IMG/VR virus record: IMGVR_UViG_2663762946_000001
Strand: one strand, 5' to 3'
Source of the DNA: a virus
Lineage: Duplodnaviria > Heunggongvirae > Uroviricota > Caudoviricetes
Length of the DNA stretch: 64,000 bases
In this document: positions 5,564 to 23,623 of the stretch, piece by piece
How the letters are laid out: each line of letters opens with the position of its first letter
Numbering within the stretch: the first letter of the stretch is position 1
Translations under genes and position numbers: made by a program
The notes under the pieces: generated by a model
What the model saw: the letters and a program-made list of their open reading frames with translations, nothing else
Told to the model about the DNA's origin: nothing
Database searches by the model: none

Positions 5564-6649
5564 GTGGTAAATTATTTGAGGGCGAAGGAATTAAAAATGT
5601 ACTTGTATAATAATAAAGACAAATTAATTACTATTCTTGAAGCTGCTGGCTTTCATGATATTTGGGAAAATAATGCTAATGAAATTAGATGTGCTACGCC
5701 CAATGGTACTAACAAGACCTCAGTAGCGATTAAACTGAACGAAAGTTTATATACGACAATATATTCATCAGATTTTTCAGGAGATATTATTGGAGCTATT
5801 CAAGTTGTTATGGACGATTCTTTAAAAGACACGATAATGTTTATACATGCCTGCCTAGGTCTTTCAATGAAGTATGTAAAGAACAAACACGATCCATTGA
5901 AATTGTTAAAAAAATATTCTAATGGCTCAAGATTGAGTAAGAATACTCATGAGAACAAGCTCTATTCTAAGCGTTATTTGAATAGATTCGTGAAAGGATT
6001 ACACAAACAAATAATTGAAGAAGGCATAACACCCAGTGTGGCTAGAAAATTTGAAATATGTTACGATCCAGAGCAGAGTAGAATTATATTCCCCCATTAT
6101 GATTGGGAAAAATCAAATCAAATAGTTGGGATAAAAGGAAGAACGACTATGGATGCGGATCTAGCAGCGGAACTTGATGTCCCAAAATATTGGAATTATA
6201 TTTCGGATTACAAAAAAACTAATAACTTATATGGATATTCTCTTTCAAAAGAAGGAATAGAAAAAAATAATATGATCATACTATTTGAAGCAGAAAAATC
6301 TGTCCTAAAACAGTTTACATTTGAAAAAGAAATTGGTTATTCGGTGGCATTAGGAGGACATGTGATCAGTGAAGAACAAGTCAGGTTTCTTTTAAAGAAT
6401 ACACCAATAGATTGTGAGATTGTTTTAGCTTTTGATAAAGATATTATGGTTAATGAAACAGAGGGAGAAACTTTCATTAAAAAGGAATGCAATAAGTTTC
6501 TAGGAATGAGGAGAATAAGCTATATATATGATAGTTTTAATATATTGAAAGATAAATCATCACCAATAGACGAGGGATATAAAAAATGGAATTATTTGTT
6601 AAAATGGAGAAAGAACTATAATAAACATATCGACAGAAAAGTTGTATAA
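5564..6649 (+). CDS. DNA primase-like protein with a TOPRIM domain
   Basis: A 361-aa protein. LFEAEKSVLKQ...VALGGH...LAFDKD matches the TOPRIM Glu and DxD motifs. It sits at the head of the replication module. Confidence 0.45.
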   Translation: MVNYLRAKELKMYLYNNKDKLITILEAAGFHDIWENNANEIRCATPNGTNKTSVAIKLNESLYTTIYSSDFSGDIIGAIQVVMDDSLKDTIMFIHACLGLSMKYVKNKHDPLKLLKKYSNGSRLSKNTHENKLYSKRYLNRFVKGLHKQIIEEGITPSVARKFEICYDPEQSRIIFPHYDWEKSNQIVGIKGRTTMDADLAAELDVPKYWNYISDYKKTNNLYGYSLSKEGIEKNNMIILFEAEKSVLKQFTFEKEIGYSVALGGHVISEEQVRFLLKNTPIDCEIVLAFDKDIMVNETEGETFIKKECNKFLGMRRISYIYDSFNILKDKSSPIDEGYKKWNYLLKWRKNYNKHIDRKVV

Positions 6650-7888: not shown

Positions 7889-8110
7889 ATGAAATTCAAA
7901 AATAATACGGTATTGGCTAAGCATTTAGGTAATGACAAGATTTATATGTGGCATGTTCCTGCCTCTATGGGGTTAAGACATAAAGTAAGAATTGGGAGTC
8001 TTATTAAGGTAGATACTCAATATGGCAATAAAATTGTAAAGGCTGTTGGGGTCGCACTTGTAAAAAATAGTAGCGGAAAATTCAGAGAGGTGGTCGAGTT
8101 TATTAAATGA
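7889..8110 (+). CDS. hypothetical small protein
   Basis: ORF from 7871 to 8110. The likely start is 7889, after AAAGGCGGAG. It overlaps the start of the next gene (ATGA). Confidence 0.35.
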   Translation: MKFKNNTVLAKHLGNDKIYMWHVPASMGLRHKVRIGSLIKVDTQYGNKIVKAVGVALVKNSSGKFREVVEFIK

Positions 8111-9333
8111 AACAATGGGTAAGCTTACATCAACACACCGATGAATCCAACGCAGGTGGTTATTTTGAAGTAGTGACTCAATATACTGATTATGTAAAAT
8201 ATGCCAAGGAAAACGAATTACCAGCAGTTTGTATAACTAATCATGGGAATGTAGCAAGATGGATGAAGCACAAAATGGCTATTAATGATTCTGGTATGAA
8301 ATATATTCATGCAATAGAAGCATATGTGACCATGAATTTGGAAGACAAAAATAGAGGGTATCATACAATTCTAATTGCAAAGAATTATGAGGGTGTGAAA
8401 GAGATTAATAGGTTATCCTCTGCATCATTTAATAGACAGGATGGACATTTTTATTATAAACCGAGAATTCTATTTGATGATCTAAAAAATACTTCAGACA
8501 ATATCTTTGTAACAACAGCATGTTTAGCAGGGGCACTTTGGCAAACATTTCCTCATCTGAATAGACAGACGAACAAAAGAGTTGAGGGCGATAAAAAAAT
8601 ATTTAAGGCTTGGATTGACTTCATTGAACAGAATAAAGAACGTGTATATCTGGAACTGCAGCCACATATCGATGAGGAACAAAAAGAGTACAACAAGCTA
8701 TTAGTAAAAATTGCTAAGAAAAAAGGTTTTAAATTAATTGCTTCAAATGATATTCATGCCCTAAACCAGCGACATAACGAAATTCGCTTAATGATAAAAA
8801 GAGGTAAAAAATCTGATTATGAGGGCGATGATAAATTTGAGATATGGTGCAAGAATTACGATGAAATGCTTGAAACTTTTGAAAGACAAGGCGTAGTAAG
8901 CAGGGGAATTGTTGAAAAAGCCCTGGATGCGACAATGGAAATTGTTAATCAAGTTGAAGACTTTGAATTAGACAGAACTCATAAATACCCACATTTATTT
9001 AAAGATGAAGAAAGTAAATTTAAAGAACTGATTGTGGAGGGTATGAAAAAAAGGGGTATCGCAAAACTCCCAAAAGAAGAAAGAAAAAAGTATATGAGTA
9101 GAGTCAATAAGGAGTTTAAAGTATATAAACAAAACGGGGCTATAAGTTATATGCTTGCTGATTGGCTTATGATTGAGGAAGCAAAGAAACAAGGTCGAAG
9201 AGTAGGGTATTCTCGTGGTAGTGTATCAGGTAGTTTGATTGCTTACTTACTCAATTCGACAGAAATTGATTCAGTTAAGGAAAATCTGAATTTTGAACGT
9301 TTTATGAACCCTGAGCGAATAAGTCTAGCGGAT
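8107..9333 (+). CDS. DNA polymerase III alpha (DnaE/C-family) exon 1, covering the PHP domain and part of the palm
   Basis: LHQHTDESNAGG...ITNHGNVAR...HAIEAY is the PHP domain. The C-terminal GYSRGSVSGSLIAYLLNSTEIDSVKENLNFERFMNPERISLAD aligns with the DnaE G(P)GRGSAAGSLVAYAL...FERFLNPERVSMPD motif. The reading frame stops right after this, and the protein continues at 10520. Confidence 0.7.
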
Positions 9334-10519
9334 TGATAGGTTTCTATCACAAATATCAGTAAGAAGGTGTTTGTGTGAGGATTGTAACTGACGAAGAAAA
9401 GATAAAGAGTGTTGAATTATATAAAAAGGGATTGTCAACAGTAAAAATAGGGAAGTTGTTTAACCGAGAGCCACGTACTATCAATAGAATGTTAAAAAGT
9501 ATGGGCGTTGAAATCAGGAGTAATAAGATTAATTCTCGTAAACATCATATCTATAACGAAAGGTACTTCAATAATATAGATACTCAAGAAAAAGCATACT
9601 TATTGGGTTTTATATATGCTGATGGTTTTATATCAATTAATGGTAATACTAAAAGGTTTGGTATATCAATCAATCGAGTTGATGAGTATTTATTAGAATT
9701 TGTTCGTAAAGAACTAAATACCGATTATCTCATTAACAGATATAAAGTCTCTTGTGGATATAGAGTCGGTGTAAATTATTCTCGTTTATTGATGACAAGT
9801 GATTTACTAGTTGATGATCTCATAAAACATGGAGTTGTCGAGCATAAAACCAATATATTATTGCCACCTAAAATATCAAACAATCTAAAAAGACATTTTA
9901 TCAGAGGATACATGGATGGCGATGGATCTATTAAAAAATGTAAAGGAAATTACAATTACGAATATGGAATTGATTTTGTAGGTACTACTGCTTTGCTGAC
10001 ATGGATTTATGATTATTTTTTAGAAAACAATTTAATTTCTAAAAGAAAAATCAATCTAGAAAAACGGAAAAAAGGCCAGTTAGTATCTCATATTCGTTGG
10101 GGCGGAAATCGACAAGTTCTCCGAATATTAAACCATTTATATAAGGATAGCGCTTTTTGTTTAAACAGGAAATTCGACAGATATTTACAATTGATGGAAC
10201 AAAGTAGTCCCATACAGGAGTGATCCTGTATTGCAAACCTCTTGAACCTATAAATATATAGGGTGTGGATATAAATATATCTGCTAACGGTTGAGTTCCC
10301 TTGCGGAAAAAACCGTGCTAACTCCTTGAAAAAGGAAATTGTGTAACGACTATCGAAAGGCAACGTTAAGTTGAACTGAGTAGAGTAGAGTTAATTGGTA
10401 ATTAATTCGAAGCGGGAGGCACTTATTTAATGATACTAATTAAATAAGTTGATGAGATAGTCTACTCCGACCACACAAAGATGTGGTGTTAAAGTATAAC
10501 GCAAGTTACGGTAGCTAGG
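9334..10519 (+). other. group I intron 1 in the DnaE gene, carrying a homing-endonuclease ORF
   Basis: Inferred from the polymerase alignment. Exon 1 ends ...SLAD (last nucleotide U at 9333). The protein resumes in frame at 10520 (IDHDWSGEDKIEVQKW, matching DnaE FDVDFC.DRRDEVIDYV) directly after a G at 10519. The sequence from 10224 to 10519 is a GC-richer, structured non-coding stretch. Confidence 0.55.
9375..10223 (+). CDS. LAGLIDADG homing endonuclease with two motifs, encoded inside the intron
   Basis: LLGFIYADGFI is motif 1 and FIRGYMDGDGSI is motif 2. There is an N-terminal HTH-like segment. The ORF lies entirely within the gap in the DnaE coding sequence. Confidence 0.75.
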   Translation: MRIVTDEEKIKSVELYKKGLSTVKIGKLFNREPRTINRMLKSMGVEIRSNKINSRKHHIYNERYFNNIDTQEKAYLLGFIYADGFISINGNTKRFGISINRVDEYLLEFVRKELNTDYLINRYKVSCGYRVGVNYSRLLMTSDLLVDDLIKHGVVEHKTNILLPPKISNNLKRHFIRGYMDGDGSIKKCKGNYNYEYGIDFVGTTALLTWIYDYFLENNLISKRKINLEKRKKGQLVSHIRWGGNRQVLRILNHLYKDSAFCLNRKFDRYLQLMEQSSPIQE

Positions 10520-11421
10520 ATAGATCATGATTGGTCAGGAGAAGATAAAATAGAAGTTCAAAAATGGTTGTTGACAAATCCAAATTTGCATTGCGCATCT
10601 ATTATGACAGCTAACACTTATGGACTGAAGGGCGCAATTAAAGTTATTGCAAAGGGAATGGATGGCTATAAAGACAAATCTCCGTTTGAGATTCAGGGAA
10701 TATGTAATCAAATAGATATTAAGGATAACTATCCAGACTCAATATATCAATCTCATAAGAAATTATTTGATACAGCCAAAGAGATAATTGGTGTTATTGA
10801 TTCGTTCGGTAGACATGCTTGTGGAATTGTTGTAAGTACAGAACCATTAGAAGGCGTAATGGGTACTCAAACTGTAAGTGGCTGGGATTATCCAGTAACA
10901 CAAGTTTATATGAAAGAAATAGACTATTGTAACTTCACAAAGTTTGATGTATTGGGTCTTGATAATCTTGGGTTAATAACAAAGTCTTGTGAGTTAGCTG
11001 GGTTACCTTTTTTAACACCAAACTCAACAGATATTGTCGATTTTCAAGATGAAAAAGTGTGGCAATCAATGGTCGAATCAAATATTGGTATTTTCCAATT
11101 TGAGGGAGAAAGAGCTGGTAGTATATTAAGACACTTATTCTCAGAAGAAACTATGAAAAAAATTAAAGAAAGAGTACCTGATATTAAATATATGGATTTA
11201 TTAAGTCTTGCTAATGCAGCACAAAGACCAAGTGGAGCAAGTTATCTTGAATCAGTAACGGAAGGTAAATTTACAGACAACGGGCACGATGCACTGAATA
11301 AATTTCTTGCCCCAACACTAGGAAATTTAGTTTATCAGGAACAACTTATTCAATTTTTGGTTGATTTTTGTGGATGGAGCTATGGGCAAGCTGATTTAAT
11401 TAGGCGTGGCATAGGTAAAAT
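10520..11421 (+). CDS. DNA polymerase III alpha (DnaE) exon 2
   Basis: ASIMTANTYGLKGAIKVIAKGM matches DnaE [28 protein letters not shown] matches HAAGVVIS. KFDVLGLDNLG matches DnaE DFLGLRTLT. It ends ...ADLIRRGIGK, which matches RRAMGK(KKPEEM). The exact 3' boundary is uncertain by a few nucleotides. Confidence 0.65.
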
Positions 11422-11787
11422 CTTTGCCTGTTAATGTGGAAACACATTATATGAAAGAGGACGAAATAGGGGAAGGTTGTAAAATATTAATCCCTAGATA
11501 ACACGATAAACTAAAGAATATTGTGTATTGTAACGCATAGTGGGTGAAACTGTAAAACAGAATATAATCCCACCAAGAGCGCCCTCCATGTAATCTTATA
11601 GAGATTACTATGCTAGTTTTGCCAACTAGATACCTAACGTTAAACGAGGATGAAAATGTATGCTAGTCTGAACTGGAATAGACCAGTTGATGAAAATGAG
11701 GAAAACCTCCAGAGCATGAGATAAAAAACTCATGGTTAATAACAATCGAAAAAGTCTCAAGCTATTATGGATAGCGAAGTGCCTAAG
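11422..11787 (+). other. group I intron 2 in the DnaE gene, with no ORF
   Basis: The frame terminates 4 codons after RRGIGK. The protein continues at ...KIKPSFIKTMIEKY (DnaE GKKKPEEM) near 11788. The roughly 365 nt between them are non-coding. The boundaries are approximate. Confidence 0.45.
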
Positions 11788-12924
11788 ATAAAACCTTCTT
11801 TTATTAAAACTATGATAGAAAAATATAATGATACCAAAGAACACGCAGAAGAAGTGGCAGATAGATTTATCCAGATATTCATGGATGCGGCTAATTATGG
11901 TTTTTCTGTAAATCATAGCCTTCCTTACTCCTACGTTGGATACATTGCGACATGGTTAAGATATTATTACTCTCTTGAATTTGCAACATCTGCCTTTGAA
12001 ATATGGAAAGATGATCAAAATAAAATTAATAAGGTTTCCAGTTATGCGCAAGAACATGGAATTACTCTAAAGAAAGCTATATTCGGAAAATCTAAAGGGC
12101 TGTATTTCATGGATAAAGATAATAATTCAATATACGAGGGTACTGCTTCTATTAAGGGAAATAATTCGCAGGTTGGGGATTTACTATATGATATTGCTAA
12201 AATTAAGAAGTATGAAAACTTTTGTGATCTTTTGTTAAAAATACATGACGATTCCTTTATAGCCGATAAAGAAGGAAATATTACAGCTATAGAAGACGTT
12301 TATAAGAAAGACGAAATTGAGCTTCAAAAAATAGATAAAGAGCTTAAATCAGGTGATATAGAGCTTCATCAAAATAAATATGATATTAATAAGACTAAAA
12401 TGGTAGGACTTATAAGATTGGGCTATTTTGATAAATTTGGGTCAATAAAAAAACTACAAACTATCTATGATTTCTTCAAAAAAGAGTATAAGCCTAATAA
12501 CAAAACTCTATCTGGTAAAGCTAAGAAATATCAATTGTGTGTAGAAACCGAAAAAAATACTCCAGAAGATGAGTACAGTTTTATACAATTACTAGAATTT
12601 GAATTATATTACACTGGGAAATGTAGTAAACATGATGATAGAATGCCAAGCAAATATGGCTTTATTGTTGATGTTAATAAAGGAAGGACTAGAACTAGAG
12701 CAACTGTGTATTCTATAAAGTATGGGAAAAATATGCCTATGCTTGTTGGAAATAGAGTTTATAACAATGTGCCTTTCAAAACTGGTGATCTAATTTCTAT
12801 TGAACAAATAGAGGAAAAACCAAAGTCTGTTTTCATGGACGGTCAATGGACTAAACACCCTACTGATGTAGATATTTGGGTCAAACAAGCAAAATTCATA
12901 AGAAAAGGTGAAATCAGCAAATGA
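11788..12924 (+). CDS. DNA polymerase III alpha (DnaE) exon 3
   Basis: ANYGFSVNHSLPYSYVGYIATWLRYYY matches the DnaE motif [25 protein letters not shown]. A C-terminal OB/tau-binding-like region follows. Confidence 0.65.
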   Translation: MKPSFIKTMIEKYNDTKEHAEEVADRFIQIFMDAANYGFSVNHSLPYSYVGYIATWLRYYYSLEFATSAFEIWKDDQNKINKVSSYAQEHGITLKKAIFGKSKGLYFMDKDNNSIYEGTASIKGNNSQVGDLLYDIAKIKKYENFCDLLLKIHDDSFIADKEGNITAIEDVYKKDEIELQKIDKELKSGDIELHQNKYDINKTKMVGLIRLGYFDKFGSIKKLQTIYDFFKKEYKPNNKTLSGKAKKYQLCVETEKNTPEDEYSFIQLLEFELYYTGKCSKHDDRMPSKYGFIVDVNKGRTRTRATVYSIKYGKNMPMLVGNRVYNNVPFKTGDLISIEQIEEKPKSVFMDGQWTKHPTDVDIWVKQAKFIRKGEISK

Positions 12925-13331
12925 TAAAAGATGATTTTGACAAAACTGTATTCCCAATTAAATTTTCAAAATTTTTCAAAAGTAGTGATAAAGATTTGAT
13001 AAAAGTAGTGACCGAATTAAATATGACAAAACTCTTGCTTTTTAAAGGTCAAATTGCTTCTAGTTCATATAAGAAAATTTATGAAAACTTAGAATCGAAA
13101 ATACAAAAAATATGTAAAACAGACAAGATGGTGGGTTTTGCATTAGGAAAGTCAGCTAGAAGAACTATAGTCTCAATGTTCATTCTTGACTATAATTACG
13201 TGGGTATGCCGTTAGAGATGGTCTATTGTGAGACACAAAATCATATTATATATGCACAAGAAATTGACAAGTATCTGGAGTACACTTATCCCAAAATTAT
13301 TGAACAACAAAAAATAGGAGGAATCAAATAA
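12921..13331 (+). CDS. hypothetical protein
   Basis: A 136-aa ORF with ATGA overlap coupling to both neighbours. Confidence 0.4.
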   Translation: MIKDDFDKTVFPIKFSKFFKSSDKDLIKVVTELNMTKLLLFKGQIASSSYKKIYENLESKIQKICKTDKMVGFALGKSARRTIVSMFILDYNYVGMPLEMVYCETQNHIIYAQEIDKYLEYTYPKIIEQQKIGGIK

Positions 13332-14677
13332 TGAATATAGATTATAAACTTGTAGAGGTAGCGAATATTTTCCAAAGAATTAGCGAGACAAGTTCAAAAA
13401 ATGAAAAGATATCAATTATTAAAGAGAATAATGATAATGAATTATTTAGGGATATTTTAAAGTTTGTTTTTGATGATTTTATTCGCACTGGGATTAGCAC
13501 AAAGAAAATGTCGATGACTAACTTAAATGAATCTGATAAAGAATTTGATAATATCAATCAACTTATGGATTATGTAAAAGAGAATAATACTGGTAAGTTA
13601 CAAGTTGTATCAAATATAAAGCAATTTTCGAGGGACTATTCACCTAGTGTTACGACTTTTATACATTCAATTTTTGCAAAGAATATTAAAGTTGGTATAA
13701 CTTCAAAGTCTATCAATAAAGCATTAGGAAAAGGATTTATTAAGGAATTTTCCTGTCAATTAGCTTATCCGATGGATAAATATATTAATCGTGTGGATGG
13801 AAGTGAATTTGTATTAACTCAAAAATTAGATGGGCATAGATGTATCGCAATTTACGACAAGGGAAGAGTAAATTTATTTACGAGAAAGGGTTTTCCTTAT
13901 GAGGGGTTAGAATTGGTTGAACGAGATGTTTCTAAGTTAGCTGCGTTATTCCAAAAAGAAGATGAAGGTATAGTTTTAGATGGTGAACTCGTCTTAGAGA
14001 ACGTTTCTCAACTTGAAACGAAAGATTTATTTCGAGCGACAGCAAAAGTTTTGAAGAATAGTGACATTGATAAAACTGGCATTTTATTTAATGTATTTGA
14101 TTGGATTCCGTTGGATGAGTTCTACAATTCACTTTCAGATTTGAGTTATAAGTCTCGCAGAAGAGAATTAGATAAAAACTATGAGGAATTTTTATTCGCA
14201 ACACAAGATGAAGTAAAAGTAAAATTAGTACCAAGTTTGTATATTGGGAAAGATACAAATAAAATTGCAGAGTTGCAAGACTCATTGGTTACTAAGTTAG
14301 GCTGGGAAGGATTGATGTTAAATTTTGCTGATGGAAAATATGCTACAAAAAGAACATCAGATCTTTTGAAAATTAAAAAATTCTACAGTTCCGATGTATT
14401 GGTTTTAGATGTTTATGAGGGTTCAGGTGTAAACAAAGGAAGACTTGGTGGCGTAATTATTCAATTTAAAGATACAGAAGTTCAAGTCGGTTCGGGGTTC
14501 AGCGAACAAGAAAGAATTGACTTTTGGAATAGTCCAGAAAACATTATTGGCAAAATAATTGAAGTCCAATACTTTGAAGAGTCAGAAAATCAAAATGGTG
14601 GGAAATCACTAAGATTTCCAACTTATAAAACATTGAGAGCAGAGAAAACTGTAGAAGATATTAACTATGAAAGTTGA
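13331..14677 (+). CDS. ATP-dependent DNA ligase
   Basis: Adenylation motif I KLDGHRCI (KxDG). There is a downstream nucleotidyltransferase and OB-domain pattern (DGELVL, EGLMLN, KIK). Confidence 0.75.
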   Translation: MNIDYKLVEVANIFQRISETSSKNEKISIIKENNDNELFRDILKFVFDDFIRTGISTKKMSMTNLNESDKEFDNINQLMDYVKENNTGKLQVVSNIKQFSRDYSPSVTTFIHSIFAKNIKVGITSKSINKALGKGFIKEFSCQLAYPMDKYINRVDGSEFVLTQKLDGHRCIAIYDKGRVNLFTRKGFPYEGLELVERDVSKLAALFQKEDEGIVLDGELVLENVSQLETKDLFRATAKVLKNSDIDKTGILFNVFDWIPLDEFYNSLSDLSYKSRRRELDKNYEEFLFATQDEVKVKLVPSLYIGKDTNKIAELQDSLVTKLGWEGLMLNFADGKYATKRTSDLLKIKKFYSSDVLVLDVYEGSGVNKGRLGGVIIQFKDTEVQVGSGFSEQERIDFWNSPENIIGKIIEVQYFEESENQNGGKSLRFPTYKTLRAEKTVEDINYES

Positions 14678-14735
14678 CACATACAAATAAACATATTACA
14701 ATATTAATATACTAAATTACTAGGAGAAATCATAA

Positions 14736-14903
14736 TGAATGCAAAACATTCTGAAATTAAAATTATTAAGAAATTAGCTAAGAAACAAGGAATTAAGCAC
14801 GTGTTAAGTATTAGAAGAGAAGATGAGAATGAATTTACTTTTGAGACAAATGAAGGTATCCTATATTTTATTGATTTAATAAGTAAAGAAATAAAAGCTG
14901 TAT
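14736..14903 (+). CDS. hypothetical small protein (55 aa)
   Basis: ATG at 14736 after an AGGAGAAATC ribosome-binding site. Not in the ORF track because it is shorter than 60 aa. Confidence 0.3.
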
Positions 14904-14906
14904 AGA

Positions 14907-14920
14907 AATAAACATAATGA
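14907..14920 (+). promoter_or_regulatory. class-2 phage motif AAATAAACATAATGAAAGG
   Basis: An exact copy 13 nt upstream of the ATG at 14933. Confidence 0.5.
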
Positions 14921-14932
14921 AAGGTTAGCGGA

Positions 14933-15712
14933 ATGAGTAAAAATCTAGTTTTATTAAAAGGTGATTGTCTAGAATTAATGAAAAAAATTCCAGACAAATC
15001 AATTGATATGATTTTATGTGATTTACCATATGGAACGAGCGCACTGAAATGGGATAATGTTATTCCAATAAGTATACTATGGAGTTTTTATAAGAGAATA
15101 ATAAAAAATAATGGTGCCATTGTTATTTTTGGAAGTGAACCATTTAGTAGTTTGATGCGCACTAGCAATCTTGATATGTATAAATACGATTGGAAATGGG
15201 AAAAACCTAATGGAGCTAATTTTTTGAATTTCAAATATCAACCAGCCAAGGTGTATGAAGATATCATGGTGTTTGGTAAGATGGCAACTTCATATTCAAA
15301 AAAGGGTAATATGAAATATTATCCACAAATGGAGATTGGAAAACCATATAAGGGTTTGTCTGGGAAACAAAAAAAGAAAAGCAATAATTCAACAGTACGA
15401 AGTGAAATTAGTCAAGTAGTTACTGATAATAATGGGACAAGATATCCAAGAAGTATACAAAAATTTAAGTTAGACAAAGATAAATTACATCCTACTCAAA
15501 AACCAGTAGCATTATTGGAATATTTGATTAAGACTTATACAAATGAAGGGGATTTAATACTAGATAATTGTATGGGATCGGGTTCAACAGGCGTAGCAGC
15601 AGTAAATACTAATCGTAAATTTATTGGTATGGAATTAGATAAAGAATATTTTGATATTGCTAAAAACCGCATTAGTGAACATATAGCAGGTAAAGAGGGG
15701 GTTTCAGTTTAA
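14933..15712 (+). CDS. DNA methyltransferase, N6-adenine or N4-cytosine, beta class
   Basis: Motif IV CDLPYGT is near the N-terminus and motif I LILDNCMGSGSTGVAA is near the C-terminus. This is the ParB-MTase/N6_N4_Mtase architecture. Confidence 0.75.
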   Translation: MSKNLVLLKGDCLELMKKIPDKSIDMILCDLPYGTSALKWDNVIPISILWSFYKRIIKNNGAIVIFGSEPFSSLMRTSNLDMYKYDWKWEKPNGANFLNFKYQPAKVYEDIMVFGKMATSYSKKGNMKYYPQMEIGKPYKGLSGKQKKKSNNSTVRSEISQVVTDNNGTRYPRSIQKFKLDKDKLHPTQKPVALLEYLIKTYTNEGDLILDNCMGSGSTGVAAVNTNRKFIGMELDKEYFDIAKNRISEHIAGKEGVSV

Positions 15713-16485
15713 TGAGCAAAGATTTAGTATTGCTACAAGGTGATTGTTTAGAAAATCTTACTAAAATTCCAGATCACAGCATAGACCTCTTATTAACCGA
15801 TCCTCCATATGAACACGTTATGGGTGGTATGAAATCGAAAGTATACAATAAATCAGGAACTTATAGGGCTAATAGTTATATGAATATGAAAATGTCGCAA
15901 TTTAAGCATGATAATATTTTTAATTTTTTAAATACTGTAATCCCAAAATTAAAGAAAATTAATATGTTTATATTTTGTTCAAAACTACAATTAGCACACT
16001 ATTTCAATTATATCAACCAACATAAGAAACTTAAATTCGATTTGTTAATTTGGGATAAAAGCTCAATAGAAGGTAAATATGGTATGAAGTCTAGTAAGTT
16101 TTTCACACAAGATATTGAATATGTTGTAAGAATTTACGAGAGCGGAGTTAGCCTAAACAAAATTTGGAATGAGGATCATACAAAAAGTAATTCTAGCTAC
16201 TACATGAAAAGACAAAAGTTTACTCAACCACATGGGTTACACGAATCCATGAAACCTGTAGAGTTATTACAAAGATATATAGAACTAACCTCTAATGAAA
16301 ATGATATAGTACTAGATCCATTTATGGGCAGTGGTTCAACGGGTATTGCTGCTCTGAACTTAAATAGGCGCTTTATTGGTATGGAACTTGATGATAAATA
16401 TTTTGGTGTAGCCAAAGGTAGAATAGAAAACACATTTACAGATATAAATAAACATAATGAAAGAAAAGAGGAAACGACAGTATGA
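15712..16485 (+). CDS. second DNA methyltransferase (N6/N4, beta class)
   Basis: TDPPYEH (motif IV) and VLDPFMGSGSTGIAA (motif I). It is translationally coupled to the previous methyltransferase (TAATG). Confidence 0.75.
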   Translation: MSKDLVLLQGDCLENLTKIPDHSIDLLLTDPPYEHVMGGMKSKVYNKSGTYRANSYMNMKMSQFKHDNIFNFLNTVIPKLKKINMFIFCSKLQLAHYFNYINQHKKLKFDLLIWDKSSIEGKYGMKSSKFFTQDIEYVVRIYESGVSLNKIWNEDHTKSNSSYYMKRQKFTQPHGLHESMKPVELLQRYIELTSNENDIVLDPFMGSGSTGIAALNLNRRFIGMELDDKYFGVAKGRIENTFTDINKHNERKEETTV

Positions 16486-17036
16486 TTATTGCAGTAGATT
16501 TTGATGGGACATTATGTAGCGAAGCATATCCTAATATTGGAAAGAAAAACGTTAAACTCTTCAATGCTCTAATTTATTTAAGAGAAAAGGGACATAAATT
16601 AATATTATGGACTTGTCGCAACGGACAATTATTAAGACAAGCAGAAAATTGGTGTTCTAATAATGGACTGTATTTTGATGCAGTCAATGAAAATCTACCA
16701 GAAGTTTTAAAAATATATACAGGAGTGGATTCTAGAAAAATTAGCTATGATATTTTGATTGATGATAAAAATATCAATATCAAAGATCTAAATAGTTTAT
16801 CTACTAAAAGAATTAAAGAATATATTCTTAATAAGAATCAGTATTCTGTAATGATACCACTACGGGGATTACTTAGTGATAATGGACAACAGTATTTAAG
16901 CTATAAGGATGGAAAATATTTTGCTTGTTCATATCGAGATAGTCTTAAACAAGAATTTACACAATCTGAACTGAATGATATCCCAGAAGCATTTAAACCA
17001 TTTATACCCAGATTTTTAGGAGACGATAAAATATGA
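16482..17036 (+). CDS. HAD-superfamily hydrolase, a possible nucleotide phosphatase
   Basis: The N-terminal MIIAVDFDGTL matches HAD motif I (DxDGT). There is a later Lys/Asp pattern. Confidence 0.45.
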   Translation: MIIAVDFDGTLCSEAYPNIGKKNVKLFNALIYLREKGHKLILWTCRNGQLLRQAENWCSNNGLYFDAVNENLPEVLKIYTGVDSRKISYDILIDDKNINIKDLNSLSTKRIKEYILNKNQYSVMIPLRGLLSDNGQQYLSYKDGKYFACSYRDSLKQEFTQSELNDIPEAFKPFIPRFLGDDKI

Positions 17037-17338
17037 AAAAAACAACAGAAGATGCGATAAAAGTGTTAGTTAATAGTCTGACTCAAGATACCTTACAGGA
17101 CATTGGCGCATTGCTAATTTTTAACAAGCCAACAGAGATGAAATATATTTTTGGGCTAATCGAAATTGATAATGAGTATTTGGAGAACTTGATTGCTGCA
17201 ATTGATAAACATTTAGAAGTTCATACCCCTGATCAAGAAGATACTGATATATTCCTTGATATTAAAAAACATGCAGAAGAAAGGTTGGCTTTACAAAAAA
17301 ATGAAATTGGAAACTTTAACGAAGATAATAAAAACTGA
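17033..17338 (+). CDS. hypothetical acidic protein
   Basis: A 101-aa ORF. Confidence 0.35.
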   Translation: MKKTTEDAIKVLVNSLTQDTLQDIGALLIFNKPTEMKYIFGLIEIDNEYLENLIAAIDKHLEVHTPDQEDTDIFLDIKKHAEERLALQKNEIGNFNEDNKN

Positions 17339-18119
17339 TGAAGAAAGACTTAATTTGATTAGAAATTTAGTTTTTGATTTACCTAAAACTTATGATGATT
17401 TCTTATCACTTGATAATCTTCAACAGAGTCGTACATTCAGCGTCATTTCTGCAATAGAAGAATTGACAATAAGCAAATCAAATTTTGTTGTTAAATATGT
17501 CCTAACTGAAGATAGAAGGCCACATTTTCTTAGTATCGAAAAAGGAAATATATCTACCACATGGTCAAAACCCGATGAAGAGGGAACACTATATTGTCTG
17601 ATTGGAGCATCTGGTTCAGGTAAAACAACGTTGGGCTATATGACTTTTGGCAAAAAGAAAGAAGTAATTAGTACCACTACACGTAAACCAAGAAAGAATG
17701 AAATAGATGGACAGGACTATTTCTTTGTAAACCCAAGATGTTTTGCTGAAATGTATAAAAAAGGTAAGTATGCTGAAATTGATAGCTATAATAATAACTA
17801 TTATGGAATCGAATTATCAGAGATTCAGGACAAAACTAAAAATGGAGATGCTTATGCGGTAGTTACGTATGAAGGATATAAGCAAATCAAGAAACTGCAT
17901 CCAAAAACTAAGTCTATTTTTATTTACTCCAGCTTTAGAGATACCAGGAAACAAATGGTTGAACGTGGAGATCCTTATTGGCAAATAAGTAAAAGGCTTG
18001 ATCTATATGAGAAAGATATGGAAAACAAAAATAAATGTGACTATGTTGTAGAGAACCATCTTGGTAAACTAAGTGACAGTTTAGAGCAAATTCAAGAAAT
18101 CGTAAAGGAGAATAAATAA
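17256..18119 (+). CDS. guanylate kinase-like nucleoside monophosphate kinase
   Basis: The P-loop GASGSGKTT plus STTTRKPRKNEIDGQDYFFV match the TTRxPRxGE-DG-DY-F signature of guanylate kinase. The start is uncertain: the ORF overlaps its upstream neighbour by 82 nt. Confidence 0.6.
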   Translation: MILKNMQKKGWLYKKMKLETLTKIIKTDEERLNLIRNLVFDLPKTYDDFLSLDNLQQSRTFSVISAIEELTISKSNFVVKYVLTEDRRPHFLSIEKGNISTTWSKPDEEGTLYCLIGASGSGKTTLGYMTFGKKKEVISTTTRKPRKNEIDGQDYFFVNPRCFAEMYKKGKYAEIDSYNNNYYGIELSEIQDKTKNGDAYAVVTYEGYKQIKKLHPKTKSIFIYSSFRDTRKQMVERGDPYWQISKRLDLYEKDMENKNKCDYVVENHLGKLSDSLEQIQEIVKENK

Positions 18120-18589
18120 TGAAAAGAACAGTATACTTTGGTGCAGGGTGGTTCACTCCCAAACAAGAATTAGCATATGATAAGGCAATGCACGCTTTAA
18201 AAAATAATTTAAGTGTTGATTTAGTCCATTCATATGTTCCATTAGAACATCAATATAAGGGTATCAGAGTCGATTTAAATCCCGAATATTTACATGATCT
18301 TGAATGGTCAAACGGGACATTTAATGGAGATATTTTGGGTATTAAATCGACTGATGTAGCATTATTTATTTATGTCCCCACAGAAGAAGATATTGGTTGT
18401 GGAGTCGAATTAGGATATGCGAAAGCTATTAATAAGACAATCATAGTCGCAATTCCAGATGAGGAGTGGGGTGAACCAATTAACCTTATGTCATTTGGTG
18501 CAGCCGATTCATTTATTAAATTAAGCGAACTAAACAAATATGACTTTACAAAGCCAGAATATAAATTTTATGAAGGGGAAGTTTATTAA
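18119..18589 (+). CDS. nucleoside 2-deoxyribosyltransferase
   Basis: MKRTVYFGAGWFTP...IYVPTEEDIGCGVELGYA matches the NDT-family fold and motifs. This enzyme family is essentially restricted to lactobacilli. Confidence 0.55.
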   Translation: MKRTVYFGAGWFTPKQELAYDKAMHALKNNLSVDLVHSYVPLEHQYKGIRVDLNPEYLHDLEWSNGTFNGDILGIKSTDVALFIYVPTEEDIGCGVELGYAKAINKTIIVAIPDEEWGEPINLMSFGAADSFIKLSELNKYDFTKPEYKFYEGEVY

Positions 18590-18604
18590 AACTTAGGTAA
18601 ATCA

Positions 18605-19034
18605 ATGACATTATCAAAAGGATTATTCACATCAGATAAAGAATATTGGGAAACACCTCGTGACTTTTTCAATAAGTTAAATGATAAATTTCACTTTAAT
18701 TGGGATCTAGCATCGACAGATAATAATGCACTTTGTAAGAATCATTTAACAGAGCAAGATGATTCCTTATCAATTGATTGGGGGGGGGTCTCTGACAGGC
18801 AACTTGTTCCTAAATCCTCCTTATGGGAGAGAATTGAAGAAATGGGTTAAGAAAGCTTCGGAAACAAAACTAGCAAAAGGTCAATTTTTAGTGATGTTAA
18901 TACCCTCAAGGACAGATACAAGTTATTGGCATGATTACATTTTTAATAAGGCCAAAATAAAATTTCTGAGAGGTAGACTGAAATTCACAATCAATGGTGT
19001 TCAGAAAGACGCAGCACCTTTCCGTCAGCGTTAG
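18605..19034 (+). CDS. Dam-family (PF05869-like) DNA N6-adenine methyltransferase interrupted by a frameshift in a G9 tract
   Basis: WETPRDFFNKLNDKFHFNWDLAST, then the NPPYGRELKKW catalytic motif, then LIPSRTDTSYWH. The ORFs 18605..18850 and 18759..19034 are one gene in two frames, joined across GGGGGGGGG at 18780-18788. Ten (or seven) Gs would restore a single frame. Confidence 0.7.
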
Positions 19035-19056
19035 CAATTTATAAAGGGGAGTAGAT

Positions 19057-19386
19057 ATGAAACATTTAATTTTGTTAATAGTATTATTGTATATCTTGTT
19101 CAAAATTACCAGGCATAGACTCATGTTAGATTTAGATTATGATCCTGAAGAAATGGAATCAGTTTATTATATTAACAATGATGGTGGGTATGATATAAGA
19201 GTACTGCCAGTAGAAACAGGTTCTAATTACACTAAATGGGGTGTCTATAAGAAAGTCAATAATGAAATTGTGACTTTAGAAGAGCATTTATTTTTATGGT
19301 TGACACCTGTTACAAGTGGCAGTGGTCAAGTAGCATTAAATAATATAATGTTACGAAAAAGAAGAGTTATTTTAGGAAAGGAATGA
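19057..19386 (+). CDS. hypothetical membrane-anchored protein
   Basis: A 109-aa ORF with an N-terminal hydrophobic helix. Confidence 0.35.
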   Translation: MKHLILLIVLLYILFKITRHRLMLDLDYDPEEMESVYYINNDGGYDIRVLPVETGSNYTKWGVYKKVNNEIVTLEEHLFLWLTPVTSGSGQVALNNIMLRKRRVILGKE

Positions 19387-19390
19387 TAAT

Positions 19391-19645
19391 TTGTCTGAAG
19401 GATATAATGCAAAAGTTTATTGGAAAGATGGTTGTAGTAGGTGTAAACAAACCATGAATTTATTTAAGATTCCATTTGAATCAGTAAAAGCTAGTCAGGA
19501 ATTCATTGAATATTTAAAAGAAGAAAAAGAAGTTAGATCTATGCCTTATGTAGAAATATTTGATAAAGATAGAAGAATAGTAGATAGCTGGAGTAACTTT
19601 GAATACGATAAGATTCGTGAATGGAATAAGAAGATAGATGCTTAA
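19391..19645 (+). CDS. glutaredoxin/NrdH-like redoxin
   Basis: An 84-aa ORF. CSRC (CxxC) lies in a VYWKDGCSRCK context. Confidence 0.5.
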   Translation: MSEGYNAKVYWKDGCSRCKQTMNLFKIPFESVKASQEFIEYLKEEKEVRSMPYVEIFDKDRRIVDSWSNFEYDKIREWNKKIDA

Positions 19646-19910
19646 TGAACTGGAAGAAAAAATATTCAGGTGGATTTGATATGAAACCACCAACCGAATT
19701 ACGAGGATCGGTATATATTGACACATGGTTACTTGATCGTGATAAATCAAGTAAAAACAAGTTGTATTTTAAATCTTAAGATTCCAATTTATTCCCTTTG
19801 ATCGACATAACTAGTTGGATAAGTAGTAAAGAACGAGAAATACAAATAGAATATGCACGCCAAAAATTTACTAAGTTTAATGGGAATGTTTGGTTAGATA
19901 GTTTACAAAT

Positions 19911-19991
19911 TAAATAAACATAATGATATAATAACCGTTGACTTTGATAAGTTTAGCGGTTATTATTATATATAGAAATAAACAAAATGAA
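19911..19991 (+). promoter_or_regulatory. two class-2 motifs (19911-19924 and 19978-19991) flanking a hairpin terminator
   Basis: AAATAAACATAATG, then TAACCG...CGGTTA hairpin plus a T-run, then AAATAAACAAAATGAAAGGAAG, 10 nt before the ATG at 20002. Confidence 0.45.
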
Positions 19992-20001
19992 AGGAAGACC
20001 A

Positions 20002-20346
20002 ATGAAATTATCGTTGTGGATTGAGAAGCGGGAAAAGAAAAAGATCAAATTAAATATGTGGCAAAGTATTGTTTTGAGACAAGAAGTTAAAAGTGCAGTA
20101 AGAGCTGGTTATGACGGAATAGTGAAACCAATTAAAGATTTAGATGATTTAATAAAGTGTGTAAATTGGTGTAAGAGAGAAAATCTATCATATGCTCGGA
20201 TATTTGAAAACAGCATATCTATTTATTGGGTATATGCTTTGCCTGAAGATAATAAAAATTACAAATACCTTTTTCCAGTTGGGAAACATCCATTATCTTT
20301 AGTGGAGAATAGGCATAGTCCTTTTGGTGTAGGTAACAAGAAATAG
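20002..20346 (+). CDS. hypothetical protein
   Basis: ORF from 19987 to 20346. The likely start is 20002, after GAAAGGAAG. Confidence 0.35.
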   Translation: MKLSLWIEKREKKKIKLNMWQSIVLRQEVKSAVRAGYDGIVKPIKDLDDLIKCVNWCKRENLSYARIFENSISIYWVYALPEDNKNYKYLFPVGKHPLSLVENRHSPFGVGNKK

Positions 20347-20357
20347 GAGGAAATAAA

Positions 20358-20660
20358 ATGAATGACGTGGCAGATTTAGATAAGAATGCGGCTAAAGATT
20401 TAGTCAAAAAAGGTGAAATGTTTTGGACTATCATGATGTCAGATATGGGAACAGGTGCAGTAAAAATAAAGTATTTACAATTAGCTAAACCTAGTGAAGA
20501 ACACGTTTCAAGATTTGACTGGAGCGATAGTCGTGAAAAGGCTACAAAATTCCTAAATTTTAATGAAACCGTAAGGATCTTCAAACAAGTATTTGAAGCA
20601 ACACACCTACCTATTACAATGGCATTTTGTGGTTGGTATCTTGAACGGGAGGAGAAATAA
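20358..20660 (+). CDS. hypothetical protein
   Basis: A 100-aa ORF with an AGGAGG ribosome-binding site. Confidence 0.4.
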   Translation: MNDVADLDKNAAKDLVKKGEMFWTIMMSDMGTGAVKIKYLQLAKPSEEHVSRFDWSDSREKATKFLNFNETVRIFKQVFEATHLPITMAFCGWYLEREEK

Positions 20661-21244
20661 TGGCACAGTTATTTTTTAGATATGGGACTATGAATAGTGG
20701 GAAAAGTGTTGAATTATTGAAAGTAGCCCATAACTATCGAGAGAGTGGTAAAATTGTCATTTTATTTACTAGCTCATTGGACACAAGATCGGGCAAAGGA
20801 AAGATAAGTAGTCGCATAGGCATATCTGATTCCGCAATAGATTTAAGTCCTACTTCAAGCGTTTGCGATGAAATTAATAACAACCCAGATCATATTTCTA
20901 ATGTTTCATGTATTCTAGTTGACGAATCACAATTTCTCACAGAGAAACAAGTTGAGGAATTAGTGTCGGTAGTAGATATTTTAAATATTCCCGTTATATG
21001 TTATGGCCTAAAAAATGACTTTATGAATAACTTATTTGAGGGTAGTGAAGCTTTGCTAAAATATGCAGATAAAATTGAAGAGATTAAGACTGTATGTAAA
21101 TTTTGTAATAGGAAAGCCACTATGAATCTTAGAATGGTCGATGGTAGGCCTGCAAGAAAAGGTGAGCAATTGCAAATTGGTGATAGTGAGTACTACTCAG
21201 TATGCAGAGAACATTGGTATTCACCAAATATGAAAAAACTATAG
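20660..21244 (+). CDS. tdk: thymidine kinase
   Basis: P-loop GTMNSGKS. The VDESQF and VICYGL motifs are present. The C-terminal zinc ribbon is CKFCNRKA...CREHW. Confidence 0.8.
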   Translation: MAQLFFRYGTMNSGKSVELLKVAHNYRESGKIVILFTSSLDTRSGKGKISSRIGISDSAIDLSPTSSVCDEINNNPDHISNVSCILVDESQFLTEKQVEELVSVVDILNIPVICYGLKNDFMNNLFEGSEALLKYADKIEEIKTVCKFCNRKATMNLRMVDGRPARKGEQLQIGDSEYYSVCREHWYSPNMKKL

Positions 21245-21253
21245 GAGGTAAAC

Positions 21254-21985
21254 ATGAAAGAGATTAATGTGCCGCAATCAATTATTAAGGAAATTAAAGA
21301 GAAAATTCCTAACTTGGCTATTTTATATCTTACAGGTTCAAGGCTAACAGGTACCCAAAACAACAAATCAGATTATGATTTCTATGCTTTCACAGTTTCA
21401 CATAAAAGCGAATTTGTTTTAAGAGATCGGAATAAAGGGACAACATACAAAGGTGATAATTATGAAATTAAATGTTTTGATATTACACATTTATTTGCAC
21501 TTTTGAGAAAAACAAATCCTAATTTTATTGAATTGTTTTTTAATGTTCCAATTTTCGTTGGTGGTTATTTTGATATTTTAACTCGTTTGATTTATCGCGA
21601 CAGAGAAAAGTTGCCATATATAAATGAAAAACATTTCGTTGCATCTTCCGTTGGAATGATTAAATCAAATCTATCTCGGATATCCCCGAATAAAGTATAC
21701 AAGGGGAGTGGATCTTTTGGTAAAGAGCTATTCAATTTAATTAAAGCATATAGGTATGGATTGGCCGTTGCTAATGGAAAGTCTTTGGAAGCTGAAATTA
21801 ATATTATGAATGAATATTTATATGTTAAAAATACAGAAGTCTATGATCAAAATTTATTGAATAAGATTAATCCTGAATATCTATATCAATGTTTGAAAGA
21901 AAAATGTGACGACATGAAAGATTCAACTGAGAAACTTGATTTGTTGAATGAATATATCTACAATACGCCATTATATTTTAAATAG
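21254..21985 (+). CDS. predicted nucleotidyltransferase (Pol-beta superfamily)
   Basis: LTGSRLTGTQNNKSDYDFYAF fits the GS-x9-13-DxD minimal nucleotidyltransferase signature. Confidence 0.45.
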   Translation: MKEINVPQSIIKEIKEKIPNLAILYLTGSRLTGTQNNKSDYDFYAFTVSHKSEFVLRDRNKGTTYKGDNYEIKCFDITHLFALLRKTNPNFIELFFNVPIFVGGYFDILTRLIYRDREKLPYINEKHFVASSVGMIKSNLSRISPNKVYKGSGSFGKELFNLIKAYRYGLAVANGKSLEAEINIMNEYLYVKNTEVYDQNLLNKINPEYLYQCLKEKCDDMKDSTEKLDLLNEYIYNTPLYFK

Positions 21986-22002
21986 ATAGGAGACAAAACA
22001 TT

Positions 22003-22317
22003 ATGTACCTTAGATATAATAGCAAATCTAAATACTATGTATTAAACATTGTTGATGAACCAACTATTAAAGAAAACTTTGTTCATTCTGATACAGGATT
22101 GCTAATTTCATACTATGCAGAACGACTTAATACACATGAAATTACACCAAAACAAGTATTCGGTATTTTCAAGGCTAGCTATAGGGATTTTAAGTATTCC
22201 GTTAAACAATATAGACATCTAACTGATGGTGGTATTCATACTTATAGTGCAGTTGACATTATTGCGATTAAATTAATCAAAAATGGATATATGAGAAAGG
22301 GTAATGTTATTGTTTAA
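22003..22317 (+). CDS. hypothetical protein
   Basis: A 104-aa ORF. Confidence 0.35.
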   Translation: MYLRYNSKSKYYVLNIVDEPTIKENFVHSDTGLLISYYAERLNTHEITPKQVFGIFKASYRDFKYSVKQYRHLTDGGIHTYSAVDIIAIKLIKNGYMRKGNVIV

Positions 22318-22349
22318 ATAAACATAATGACATAGTGTGATTGATAATA

Positions 22350-22694
22350 ATGAAATTATTAAGAGAATTTTTTGAACACTGTCTGCTAGACACGATTATT
22401 TATGACAAAGAGAAACCTAAGTTTAGTGAAATCTGTACTGTTTTGTTTGCAATGATATTTAGTATTTTTATAATGGTTTACTGCATTGCCTTAGTATTCG
22501 CTGTAATATATGAAGTTTATTACTTTATAGTAATTAACCATCTGTATATATCGGCAGAATTTTGGGCAATTACACTTTATACGTTAGGAATAGTGGCTTC
22601 ATTCTTCTTAGTAGCATTAATTATATGGGAAGCAATAAAACTAAACGTAAAACTTAAAAATTGGAGTGATAGAAAACATGTACACAATGAATAA
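22350..22694 (+). CDS. hypothetical membrane protein
   Basis: Three predicted hydrophobic helices. The likely start is 22350. A class-2 motif lies at 22315-22328. Confidence 0.4.
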   Translation: MKLLREFFEHCLLDTIIYDKEKPKFSEICTVLFAMIFSIFIMVYCIALVFAVIYEVYYFIVINHLYISAEFWAITLYTLGIVASFFLVALIIWEAIKLNVKLKNWSDRKHVHNE

Positions 22695-22932
22695 ATCTGG
22701 TGCGAATGTAAGGACTTTTGATTTCATAGATACAGATAAATTATGTGAAGAATATGTTAAAGGAGTCATAAGTTTAAAAGAACTAGCATTTCAACTTAGT
22801 ATAGCCAACTTTACTTTTTCAAAAGAGAGGTTAGACAAATTAAAAACCAGGGCTTTTGAAGCAACACCAACTGAAATAGCTGCACAAGCATTAATCAAGC
22901 AAGGTTTAATGTATGAGGTGAATAATGGATAA
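22666..22932 (+). CDS. hypothetical protein
   Basis: An 88-aa ORF. Confidence 0.3.
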   Translation: MIENMYTMNKSGANVRTFDFIDTDKLCEEYVKGVISLKELAFQLSIANFTFSKERLDKLKTRAFEATPTEIAAQALIKQGLMYEVNNG

Positions 22933-23623
22933 GATAGAAGTTACAGTAGAAACATTGAATGCAGCGGTGACAAAAGGTAGATCTAATGCTGTGATAGCAG
23001 AACTTAGATCAAGAAATGGGAAACCAGTTAATTCTCAGAAATTAAATGACATCCATAAACAACTTCGCTATAAGGATTATGCCGAGGCAACGTTGGAAAG
23101 TTCATTAATGGGTTGGATCTGGGTTCCACTAATATTTATATTGTTCGTAATCATTATTGTATTAAATTTAAAAAACATTTTCTTAAGTATTCCTCTTTTG
23201 GTATCTCCTATTCTTTTACCTTTGTGTTATAGAATATATCTTACATGTTATTTCAAAAAATATTACAAAAAAATACCTGATTCTTTCGTGGAGAATAGCA
23301 TTGAACTGCCTTGCAGTGATACTAAATTTTATGAAAACGAGATTATACAAGCAGCTGATTGGTGTTCCAACAAAGTAAGAGAATACCCTTATAATTATTG
23401 GGATCTCATTTGTAATAATAGAGATATAACTCTTGCATATGTATTGTATCAAAGAGATAAAAATACAAATAATTTCCCTATAATACTTCAATTAAAAGTG
23501 ACGGATTTTCTAGCAGAGTTAGCTGATATTTTAAATAACAAAAGTAAATATAATGCAATAAAAAATAACGATACACAGTTTCTTGTTTGGATTCAGAGAA
23601 TAGTTGAGTTATACGATAGATAA
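22925..23623 (+). CDS. hypothetical membrane protein
   Basis: A 232-aa protein with two hydrophobic helices in its middle section. Confidence 0.4.
   Translation: MDKIEVTVETLNAAVTKGRSNAVIAELRSRNGKPVNSQKLNDIHKQLRYKDYAEATLESSLMGWIWVPLIFILFVIIIVLNLKNIFLSIPLLVSPILLPLCYRIYLTCYFKKYYKKIPDSFVENSIELPCSDTKFYENEIIQAADWCSNKVREYPYNYWDLICNNRDITLAYVLYQRDKNTNNFPIILQLKVTDFLAELADILNNKSKYNAIKNNDTQFLVWIQRIVELYDR

Follow-up and report, generated by a model that had tools for sequence, protein, structure and literature searches.

A run of nine guanines interrupts a phage gene of Liquorilactobacillus hordei, which is an orphan N6-adenine DNA methyltransferase gene of the PF05869 (PamA/HP1-Dam) family. The explanation that we favor, with a probability of about 0.6, is that this run is a slippage-prone tract of the phase-variable type, and that it would here be in the OFF state, within a copy of the gene that appears to be decaying already. 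Five features combine into the pattern that is expected, in comparative data, of a contingency locus subject to slipped-strand mispairing: the homopolymer sets the reading frame; it is more frequent than codon usage would predict; ON and OFF lengths flank G8; near-identical genomes differ only at the tract; and OFF alleles are otherwise intact.

Two frameshifts in the methylase gene

A sequence-only reading of the DNA analyzed here (a stretch of 64 kb, referred to in its entirety as the window) had proposed that two open reading frames, 18605-18850 and 18759-19034, encode the halves of one Dam methylase, separated by a homopolymer of nine guanines at 18780-18788. Both points are borne out. G9 is found at these positions when the sequence is read directly, and the two frames, of 81 and 91 amino acids, each score 46 bits against PF05869 (Dam), the first over profile positions 6-60 and the second over positions 60-130. 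It had also been proposed that G10 or G7 would join the halves; this is incorrect, as both lengths give immediate stops. The C-terminal half sits in the +1 frame, and for this reason G8 or G11 is needed.

The gene lies on the + strand and can be divided into several segments. The N-terminal segment, Met1-Gly61 (18605-18787), corresponds to profile positions 6-60 and aligns to residues 1-61 of intact homologs. It ends in W59-G60-G61, written as TGG (18779-18781), GGG (18782-18784), and GGG (18785-18787), after which the N-terminal frame continues out of register to the stop at 18850. The frame-determining tract, with its surplus base at 18788, overlaps these codons. The middle segment (18789-19021), which is in the +1 frame and reads SLTGNLFLNPPYGRE...DAAPF, covers profile positions 60-130 and carries the catalytic NPPY, as the alignment with homologs indicates. 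The NPPYG motif of this segment is invariant in both homolog alignments, of 16 and 26 sequences, and corresponds to N64-Y67 of PamA. In a G8 form of the window, the junction reads ...SIDWGG-SLTGNLFLNPPYG.

A second frameshift, absent from the sequence-only reading, is located near the 3′ end. The C-terminal half ends ...DAAPFRQR* at 19034, whereas the tail PSALAIYKGE* (19022-19054, + strand) is stranded back in the frame of 18605. The cause is a deletion of one nucleotide in the T-run at 19019-19021 (+ strand), which is T3 in the window and T4 (CCT TTT CCG) in a haplotype with 98.4% identity, described below. In the DNA alignment, the Pro-Phe codons of homologs are CCN TTY CCN, compared with CC TTT CCG in the window. 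The frameshift replaces the invariant C-terminal strand (PFPSALAIYKGE) with RQR*. The stranded tail is the family-invariant PFPSA..Y segment, with the invariant residues P140, S141, A142, and Y146, and the A-P-F-P-S-A stretch is invariant in the 16 as well as in the 26 homologs. Apart from the two indels, the window gene keeps all conserved residues of the family. Working members of the family have a single uninterrupted frame of about 140-155 aa that includes the APFPSA..Y strand, and no such frame is present at the window locus. Given the two frameshifts and the tail in another frame, the locus is a disrupted PF05869 gene and not a working member.

The history of the first site appears to be more than a single slip, since the junction has four extra bases, not one, in the DNA alignment with the two nearest intact homologs. 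Even the G8 form is one residue (Ser) longer at the junction than all 16 aligned homologs. The extra Ser falls in the turn before the NPPY strand; it is plausibly tolerated, because the spacing from the Trp to NPPY spans 7 to 12 codons among intact family members. We also considered a native in-frame G9 followed by a 4-nt insertion (removal of GACA gives DWGGVSGN). This alternative leaves unchanged the fact that G8 restores the frame, as is seen in the complete-genome record CP049301.1.

The tract is exceptional for its surroundings. The window has a GC content of 31%, and G9 is its sole G/C homopolymer longer than 5. The expected number of nine-G runs per window is 0.02, and 2 of 100 dinucleotide-preserving shuffles contained one. 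Moreover, GGG makes up 13% of the glycine codons of the window, and GGG-GGG is used in none of its 34 other Gly-Gly pairs.

Family membership and structural context

When both frameshifts are repaired, the resulting 149-aa protein scores 101.5 bits against PF05869 (gathering score, 28.1) and can be aligned over its full length with intact homologs. Its identity is 83% to P0001, the closest intact homolog, 70% to the genes of Lactobacillus phages Silenus and Sabazios, and 55% to PamA over 133 residues. PamA, encoded by a prophage (mosaic phi11) of S. aureus, has been shown experimentally to methylate GATC in an NPPY-dependent manner (Ulrich et al. 2025, J Clin Invest; PMC12435837). By analogy with PamA, an ON form of the window gene would be expected to methylate GATC-like sites on phage and host DNA. 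The two genes share the Pfam family, the NPPY motif, and the APFPSA..Y tail, and both encode small orphan enzymes of about 140-150 aa with no adjacent restriction gene. They differ in that PamA has DWSEDI at the site in question, lacks a G-tract, and is an intact single frame, whereas the window gene has two frameshifts.

In the AlphaFold model of P0001 (pLDDT 82.6, pTM 0.80), W-G-G lies in a turn that precedes the strand running into NPPY, and residues 140-146 form a confident seven-residue β-strand. The nearest solved folds are those of the PCIF1/CAPAM N6-adenosine methyltransferases, with a TM-score of ~0.65. A profile search of PDB sequences returned only a spurious match to a cysteine-rich secreted protein (E = 0.003). 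A near-DNA search of INPHARED phages gave nothing but a 56-bp match to S. aureus methylase genes, and PLSDB plasmids gave no match.

The C-terminal half has an ATG of its own at 18759, and split methyltransferases exist elsewhere. The 81-aa and 91-aa products could thus be imagined to assemble into an active two-subunit enzyme. We nevertheless regard this as the least probable of the explanations weighed here. No Shine-Dalgarno-like sequence precedes 18759 (GAGCAAG ATG), all close homologs are single chains, and the split falls, according to the P0001 model, in the turn immediately before the catalytic strand. In addition, the C-terminal strand would still be missing from such an assembly.

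The gene directly upstream encodes a nucleoside 2-deoxyribosyltransferase (18119-18589, + strand) and is separated from the methylase start by 15 nt. We identified no restriction endonuclease gene adjoining the methylase, the other neighbors being small proteins without a Pfam match. Two intact tandem genes for N6_N4 DNA methyltransferases (14933-15712 and 15712-16485, + strand; PF01555, 110 and 101 bits; phrog_67) are found further upstream. They overlap by one base and form, together with the Dam gene, a block of three methylases within 4 kb.

Tract length in copies of the L. hordei element

Four independent copies of the locus, which were recruited by exact-protein look-up and compared base by base, resolve into three haplotypes. 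Haplotype A (G9 with T3) comprises the window and the Logan short-read assembly of ERR387525, which match at every position over 10,246 bp (100% identity). Haplotype B (G8 with T3) is CP049301.1; over the 47,096 bp compared (window positions 13119-23590 and 26837-63460), its only difference from the window is one G in the tract. Haplotype C (G9 with T4), found in SRR26215808 and SRR26216058, is 98.4% identical to the window and has an intact second site. The window and CP049301.1 thus represent a polymorphism of tract length, G9 versus G8, between otherwise identical genomes, and the T3 run is the same in CP049301.1 and ERR387525.

Among the options that had been named at the outset was a sequencing or assembly artefact, in which case the true sequence of the window would have G8 and a single frame. 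Long homopolymers are indeed error-prone, and one public assembly of the same element, CP049301.1, has G8. This option is now essentially excluded. An identical 81-aa fragment is encoded on contigs from ERR387525, SRR26215808, and SRR26216058, and G9 was read directly in each; this tract length is thus reproduced by three short-read assemblies that are independent of one another, stem from different samples, and represent two haplotypes. Moreover, a gene with G8 would still be without the conserved C-terminus, a lesion that the window and CP049301.1 have in common. Conversely, the G8 of CP049301.1 could be a homopolymer miscall, though the T8 and T9 runs of this record are correct: three T8 runs and one T9 run agree between it and the window. 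The length of the tract is a real, variable character of this element, and the T3 deletion is likewise real and is fixed in the lineage of haplotypes A and B.

Comparison of the window with haplotype C (L057/L058; 18384-20145) reveals no substitutions at 18384-19015 and ~24 in the 1.1 kb from 19016 on. This distribution suggests recombination, with its breakpoint precisely where the methylase gene ends (3′), beside the T3/T4 indel. As the stretch 18384-19015 has no substitutions, the G9 of haplotypes A and C is probably identical by descent and would have been stable over a short time.

Exact patterns of the window's own allele were not found in IMG/VR, in GTDB representative genomes, or in JGI metagenomes. 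Likewise, exact look-up among ~15 billion catalogued proteins returned none of the products expected from G7, G10, G11, or the intact G8/T4 combination (149 aa).

The tract in other phages

Related tracts are present in isolated phages. In Faecalibacterium phage FP_Lagaffe (L001, MG711461.1) the split falls at the same D-W-G-G site, where the gene has G7 but would need G8. In phage nd12 (L002, OR777946.1) it is a G9 at a different Gly-Gly site that throws the gene out of frame. A contig from IMG/VR with only 59% identity (L049) has G9 at the W-G-G site and needs G10 or G7. The annotations of the two isolates should be mentioned here: in FP_Lagaffe, only the C-terminal half bears the label Dam, and the beginning of the gene overlaps a neighboring 'hypothetical protein'; the nd12 gene is listed as a single full-length hypothetical frame, which passes the frameshift and continues out of frame. 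Located ~0.8 kb upstream in FP_Lagaffe is a gene for a deoxyribosyltransferase, matching the upstream neighbor of the window gene.

For a broader survey, IMG/VR was scanned for T followed by at least 7 Gs upstream of NPPYG, which gave at least 120 loci; ON and OFF were called from the frames that carry the N- and C-terminal parts of the family profile. Among the 120 matches listed, 65 are in frame, 48 are out of frame, and 7 are incomplete. These listed loci fall into 98 clusters at 97% identity, and ON and OFF alleles are mixed in 6 of the 11 clusters with multiple members. An unselected scan for TGG GGN GGN upstream of NPPYG gave at least 120 sites in IMG/VR; among the 120 matches listed, 80 have 7 or more Gs and 40 are tract-less. 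The first Gly codon of W-G-G is GGG in 67% of the listed sites, compared with 18% for the control Gly of NPPYG in the same genes. In this comparison, which takes no account of kinship, the tract is over-represented relative to codon usage, being 3-4 times commoner than predicted at this site; such an excess would point to selection for mutability. Its presence is also associated with loss of frame: 48 of 113 listed tract-bearing genes (42%) are out of frame, as against 2 of 36 tract-less ones (6%), with an odds ratio of 12.6 (p = 1.4e-5) that ignores kinship within a sample made up of the listed matches, many of whose contigs come from one large metagenome.

Two tract-less genes are out of frame, the only such genes among those listed (IMG/VR L201 and L219), and each contains a T7 run (GTTTTTTTG) in the interval from W-G-G to NPPY. 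In these two genes, a homopolymer other than poly-G may serve the same function.

The commonest OFF lengths among the listed alleles are G9, with one G too many, and G7, with one too few. These lengths flank G8, which points to G8 as the usual ON state. The survey also contains pairs of sequences from different metagenomes that have no mismatch over 500-720 bp, differ solely by one G, and change between ON and OFF (L098/L118, L118/L143, L082/L169, and L106/L110). Moreover, 33 of the 48 listed OFF alleles are otherwise intact, compared with 52 of the 65 ON alleles. Since OFF alleles are intact nearly as often as ON alleles, recent or reversible inactivation fits better than a collection of old pseudogenes. 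The phages that bear the tract span 29-63% GC at the locus. It should be noted that genes with W-G-G are only a subset of PF05869, and that just 1 of the 47 closest IMG/VR relatives has a tract.

These data also bear on the question of whether the split is only apparent, that is, whether the G9 allele is expressed by +1 ribosomal frameshifting on GGG_G or by transcriptional slippage. Polymerases can slip on homopolymers, and judging from the sequence, a P-site tRNA-Gly could re-pair from GGG at 18785-18787 to 18786-18788 and continue with TCT CTG, which would yield exactly homologous sequence. Yet 65 of the 113 listed tract alleles, the majority, are in frame without any shift. Among the OFF alleles, 24 carry a single surplus base, and 21 either lack one base or have two in excess; the required shifts go both ways, and no direction is conserved. 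Programmed recoding is for these reasons very unlikely. In the window, it would also take a second event, of -1, at CCT TTC, where P-site re-pairing is poor. No terminator-like hairpin was found within 17900-19700, the region covered by the hairpin scan, and scans for promoters and terminators gave nothing above the shuffled background.

A more serious competitor is a plain pseudogene, in which the insertion of a single G inactivated the gene, the second frameshift represents further decay, no meaningful reversible switching takes place, and the G8 of CP049301.1 is an assembly or polishing error. The presence of two independent frameshifts within 450 bp, the occurrence of G9 in two haplotypes, and the absence of the intact product from the ~15 billion catalogued proteins are all in keeping with this explanation; besides, the two other intact methyltransferases 2-4 kb upstream could make a Dam gene dispensable. 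Against it stands the observation that the tract is the only difference between two assemblies in 47 kb, in which the T8 and T9 runs agree. Identical genes flip in tract length in four or more further lineages as well, the tract exceeds what codon usage predicts at this site, and the conserved family residues have been kept apart from the two indels. We consider a plain pseudogene unlikely on balance, while giving it more weight than any of the explanations discussed so far as competitors. The sequence-only reading had also named an inactivated gene as an option, and this copy is probably inactive.

The element and its other genes

The window belongs to a large phage-like element of L. hordei, with genes for an endolysin, a Pol III alpha-type polymerase, a ligase, helicases, and nucleotide metabolism. 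In the complete genome GCA_019443985.1 the element is a separate record of 145,196 bp (CP049301.1; L059, L180, L181), and its sequence is also found on a 112,875-bp Logan contig of run ERR387525. The available sequence suggests that it is an episomal prophage, a phage-plasmid, or a large phage in a carrier state. Its deposited phage relatives have only ~32% protein identity. The 81-aa and 91-aa methylase fragments are both catalogued as L. hordei proteins, the former as KRL07962.1 from the draft genome of DSM 19519. Exact look-ups of the window proteins 5564-6649 and 19057-19386 came back empty, probably owing to differing start-codon calls.

Two further features of the window deserve mention. 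The gene for the Pol III alpha-type polymerase (8107-12924) is in at least three pieces, 8107-9336, 10568-11434, and 11767-12924. The first comprises the PHP domain and the first part of the alpha NTPase domain, and the second the remainder of that domain and the finger domain. An ORF resembling LAGLIDADG homing endonucleases (9375-10223) lies between these two pieces, and the split looks like interruption by an intron or intein rather than the result of frameshifts. The region 26837-47784 (L180), on the minus strand, contains a cluster of genes of the defense and counter-defense type. It includes a TIR-domain protein (36837-37784), a HicA/HicB pair, a Tad4-family protein, YopX, an NMN transporter (PnuC-type), a GIY-YIG endonuclease, and a Band_7 protein.

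Discussion

The mechanism that we propose starts from the W-G-G codons just upstream of NPPY. Written TGG GGG GGG, these form a poly-G tract, which would gain or lose single Gs through slipped-strand mispairing during replication. G8 keeps the gene in frame (ON). The window has G9 (OFF), and translation would therefore end at 18850. If the rate of slippage is high and reversible, as phase variation implies, progeny or lysogens with mixed methylation states would result.

Whether the copy in the window can take part in such switching is a separate matter. The tract is long enough for a frame-setting homopolymer of a contingency locus (about 7 or more). The rest of a contingency gene is expected to be intact, and this is not so in the window or in CP049301.1; haplotype C keeps the C-terminal strand. 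The product of the G8/T3 combination is a protein of 142 aa without the conserved core β-strand, which is annotated in CP049301.1 as an intact methyltransferase; judging from the structural model, this G8 form is probably inactive. Since G8 gives only this protein, the copy is probably inactivated at any tract length, and the second frameshift implies that selection has not kept it functional. Haplotype C, with its intact 3′ end, would be the copy in which a slip from G9 to G8 regenerates the full protein. The ON/OFF switch envisaged by the sequence-only reading thus gains support from the G8/G9 variation and from the ON and OFF lengths found across unrelated phages, but it does not hold in full for the gene at hand, where G8 yields 142 aa without the core strand.

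A broader proposal can be put forward tentatively, at somewhat less than even odds, namely that poly-G at W-G-G is a selected reversible switch in a large and diverse set of phage and prophage PF05869 genes. Progeny mixed for GATC-type methylation would then be hedged against hosts that cut unmethylated DNA as well as hosts that cut methylated DNA. PamA reprograms host gene expression, and because it is related to these enzymes, lysogens would carry a prophage-borne phasevarion.

Phase-variable methyltransferases driven by repeats are well established, and include phasevarions (Type III Mod and Type I HsdM/S) and the poly-G Type IIG gene cj0031 of Campylobacter jejuni (PMC5909438, PMC7383803, PMC4889913). 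In these systems, as in the window gene, an intragenic repeat sets the frame of a DNA adenine methyltransferase, and ON and OFF lengths occur in near-identical genomes. They differ in being chromosomal restriction-modification systems of bacterial pathogens with measured switching rates and regulons, whereas the window gene is a PF05869 orphan of a phage or prophage, for which comparative data suggest switching. Its classification as a phasevarion proper, as a component of a Type I or Type III system, was rejected: it is a PF05869 orphan situated beside a deoxyribosyltransferase and small proteins without a Pfam match. A paper on Salmonella phage Rissen phi1 was also set aside as a precedent, as it concerns host genes.

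Hypermutable poly-G tracts are also established for the genomes of Campylobacter phages (Sorensen et al. 2021, Cell Rep 35:109214, as cited in PMC12823448). The resemblance lies in a phage-encoded poly-G that would produce ON/OFF diversity in progeny, and in a low GC content against which such tracts stand out. Unlike those tracts, which reportedly generate phenotypic diversity in receptor-binding functions, the one in the window affects a gene for DNA modification and occupies a W-G-G codon triplet that is conserved. Full-text literature searches yielded no account of repeat-driven switching in phage-encoded orphan Dam enzymes or of poly-G in PF05869 genes of phages, nor is one given in a 2026 review of phage-encoded, orphan, and phase-variable methyltransferases. 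The mechanism is familiar; what seems not to have been described before is the gene family involved, the conserved position of the codons, and how widely the tract is spread among phages.

For the window alone the consequence is small, since this copy is most likely non-functional. A practical implication concerns annotation, which is inconsistent for genes split by the tract: one assembly gives the same L. hordei gene as two fragments, and another gives it as a protein of 142 aa. Should the tract prove to be a true switch, methylation in these phages and prophages would be a heritable but unstable trait. This would bear on host range, escape from restriction, the design of phage therapy, and the assignment of hosts in metagenomes by methylation, and effects like those of PamA could bear on epigenetic heterogeneity in lysogens.
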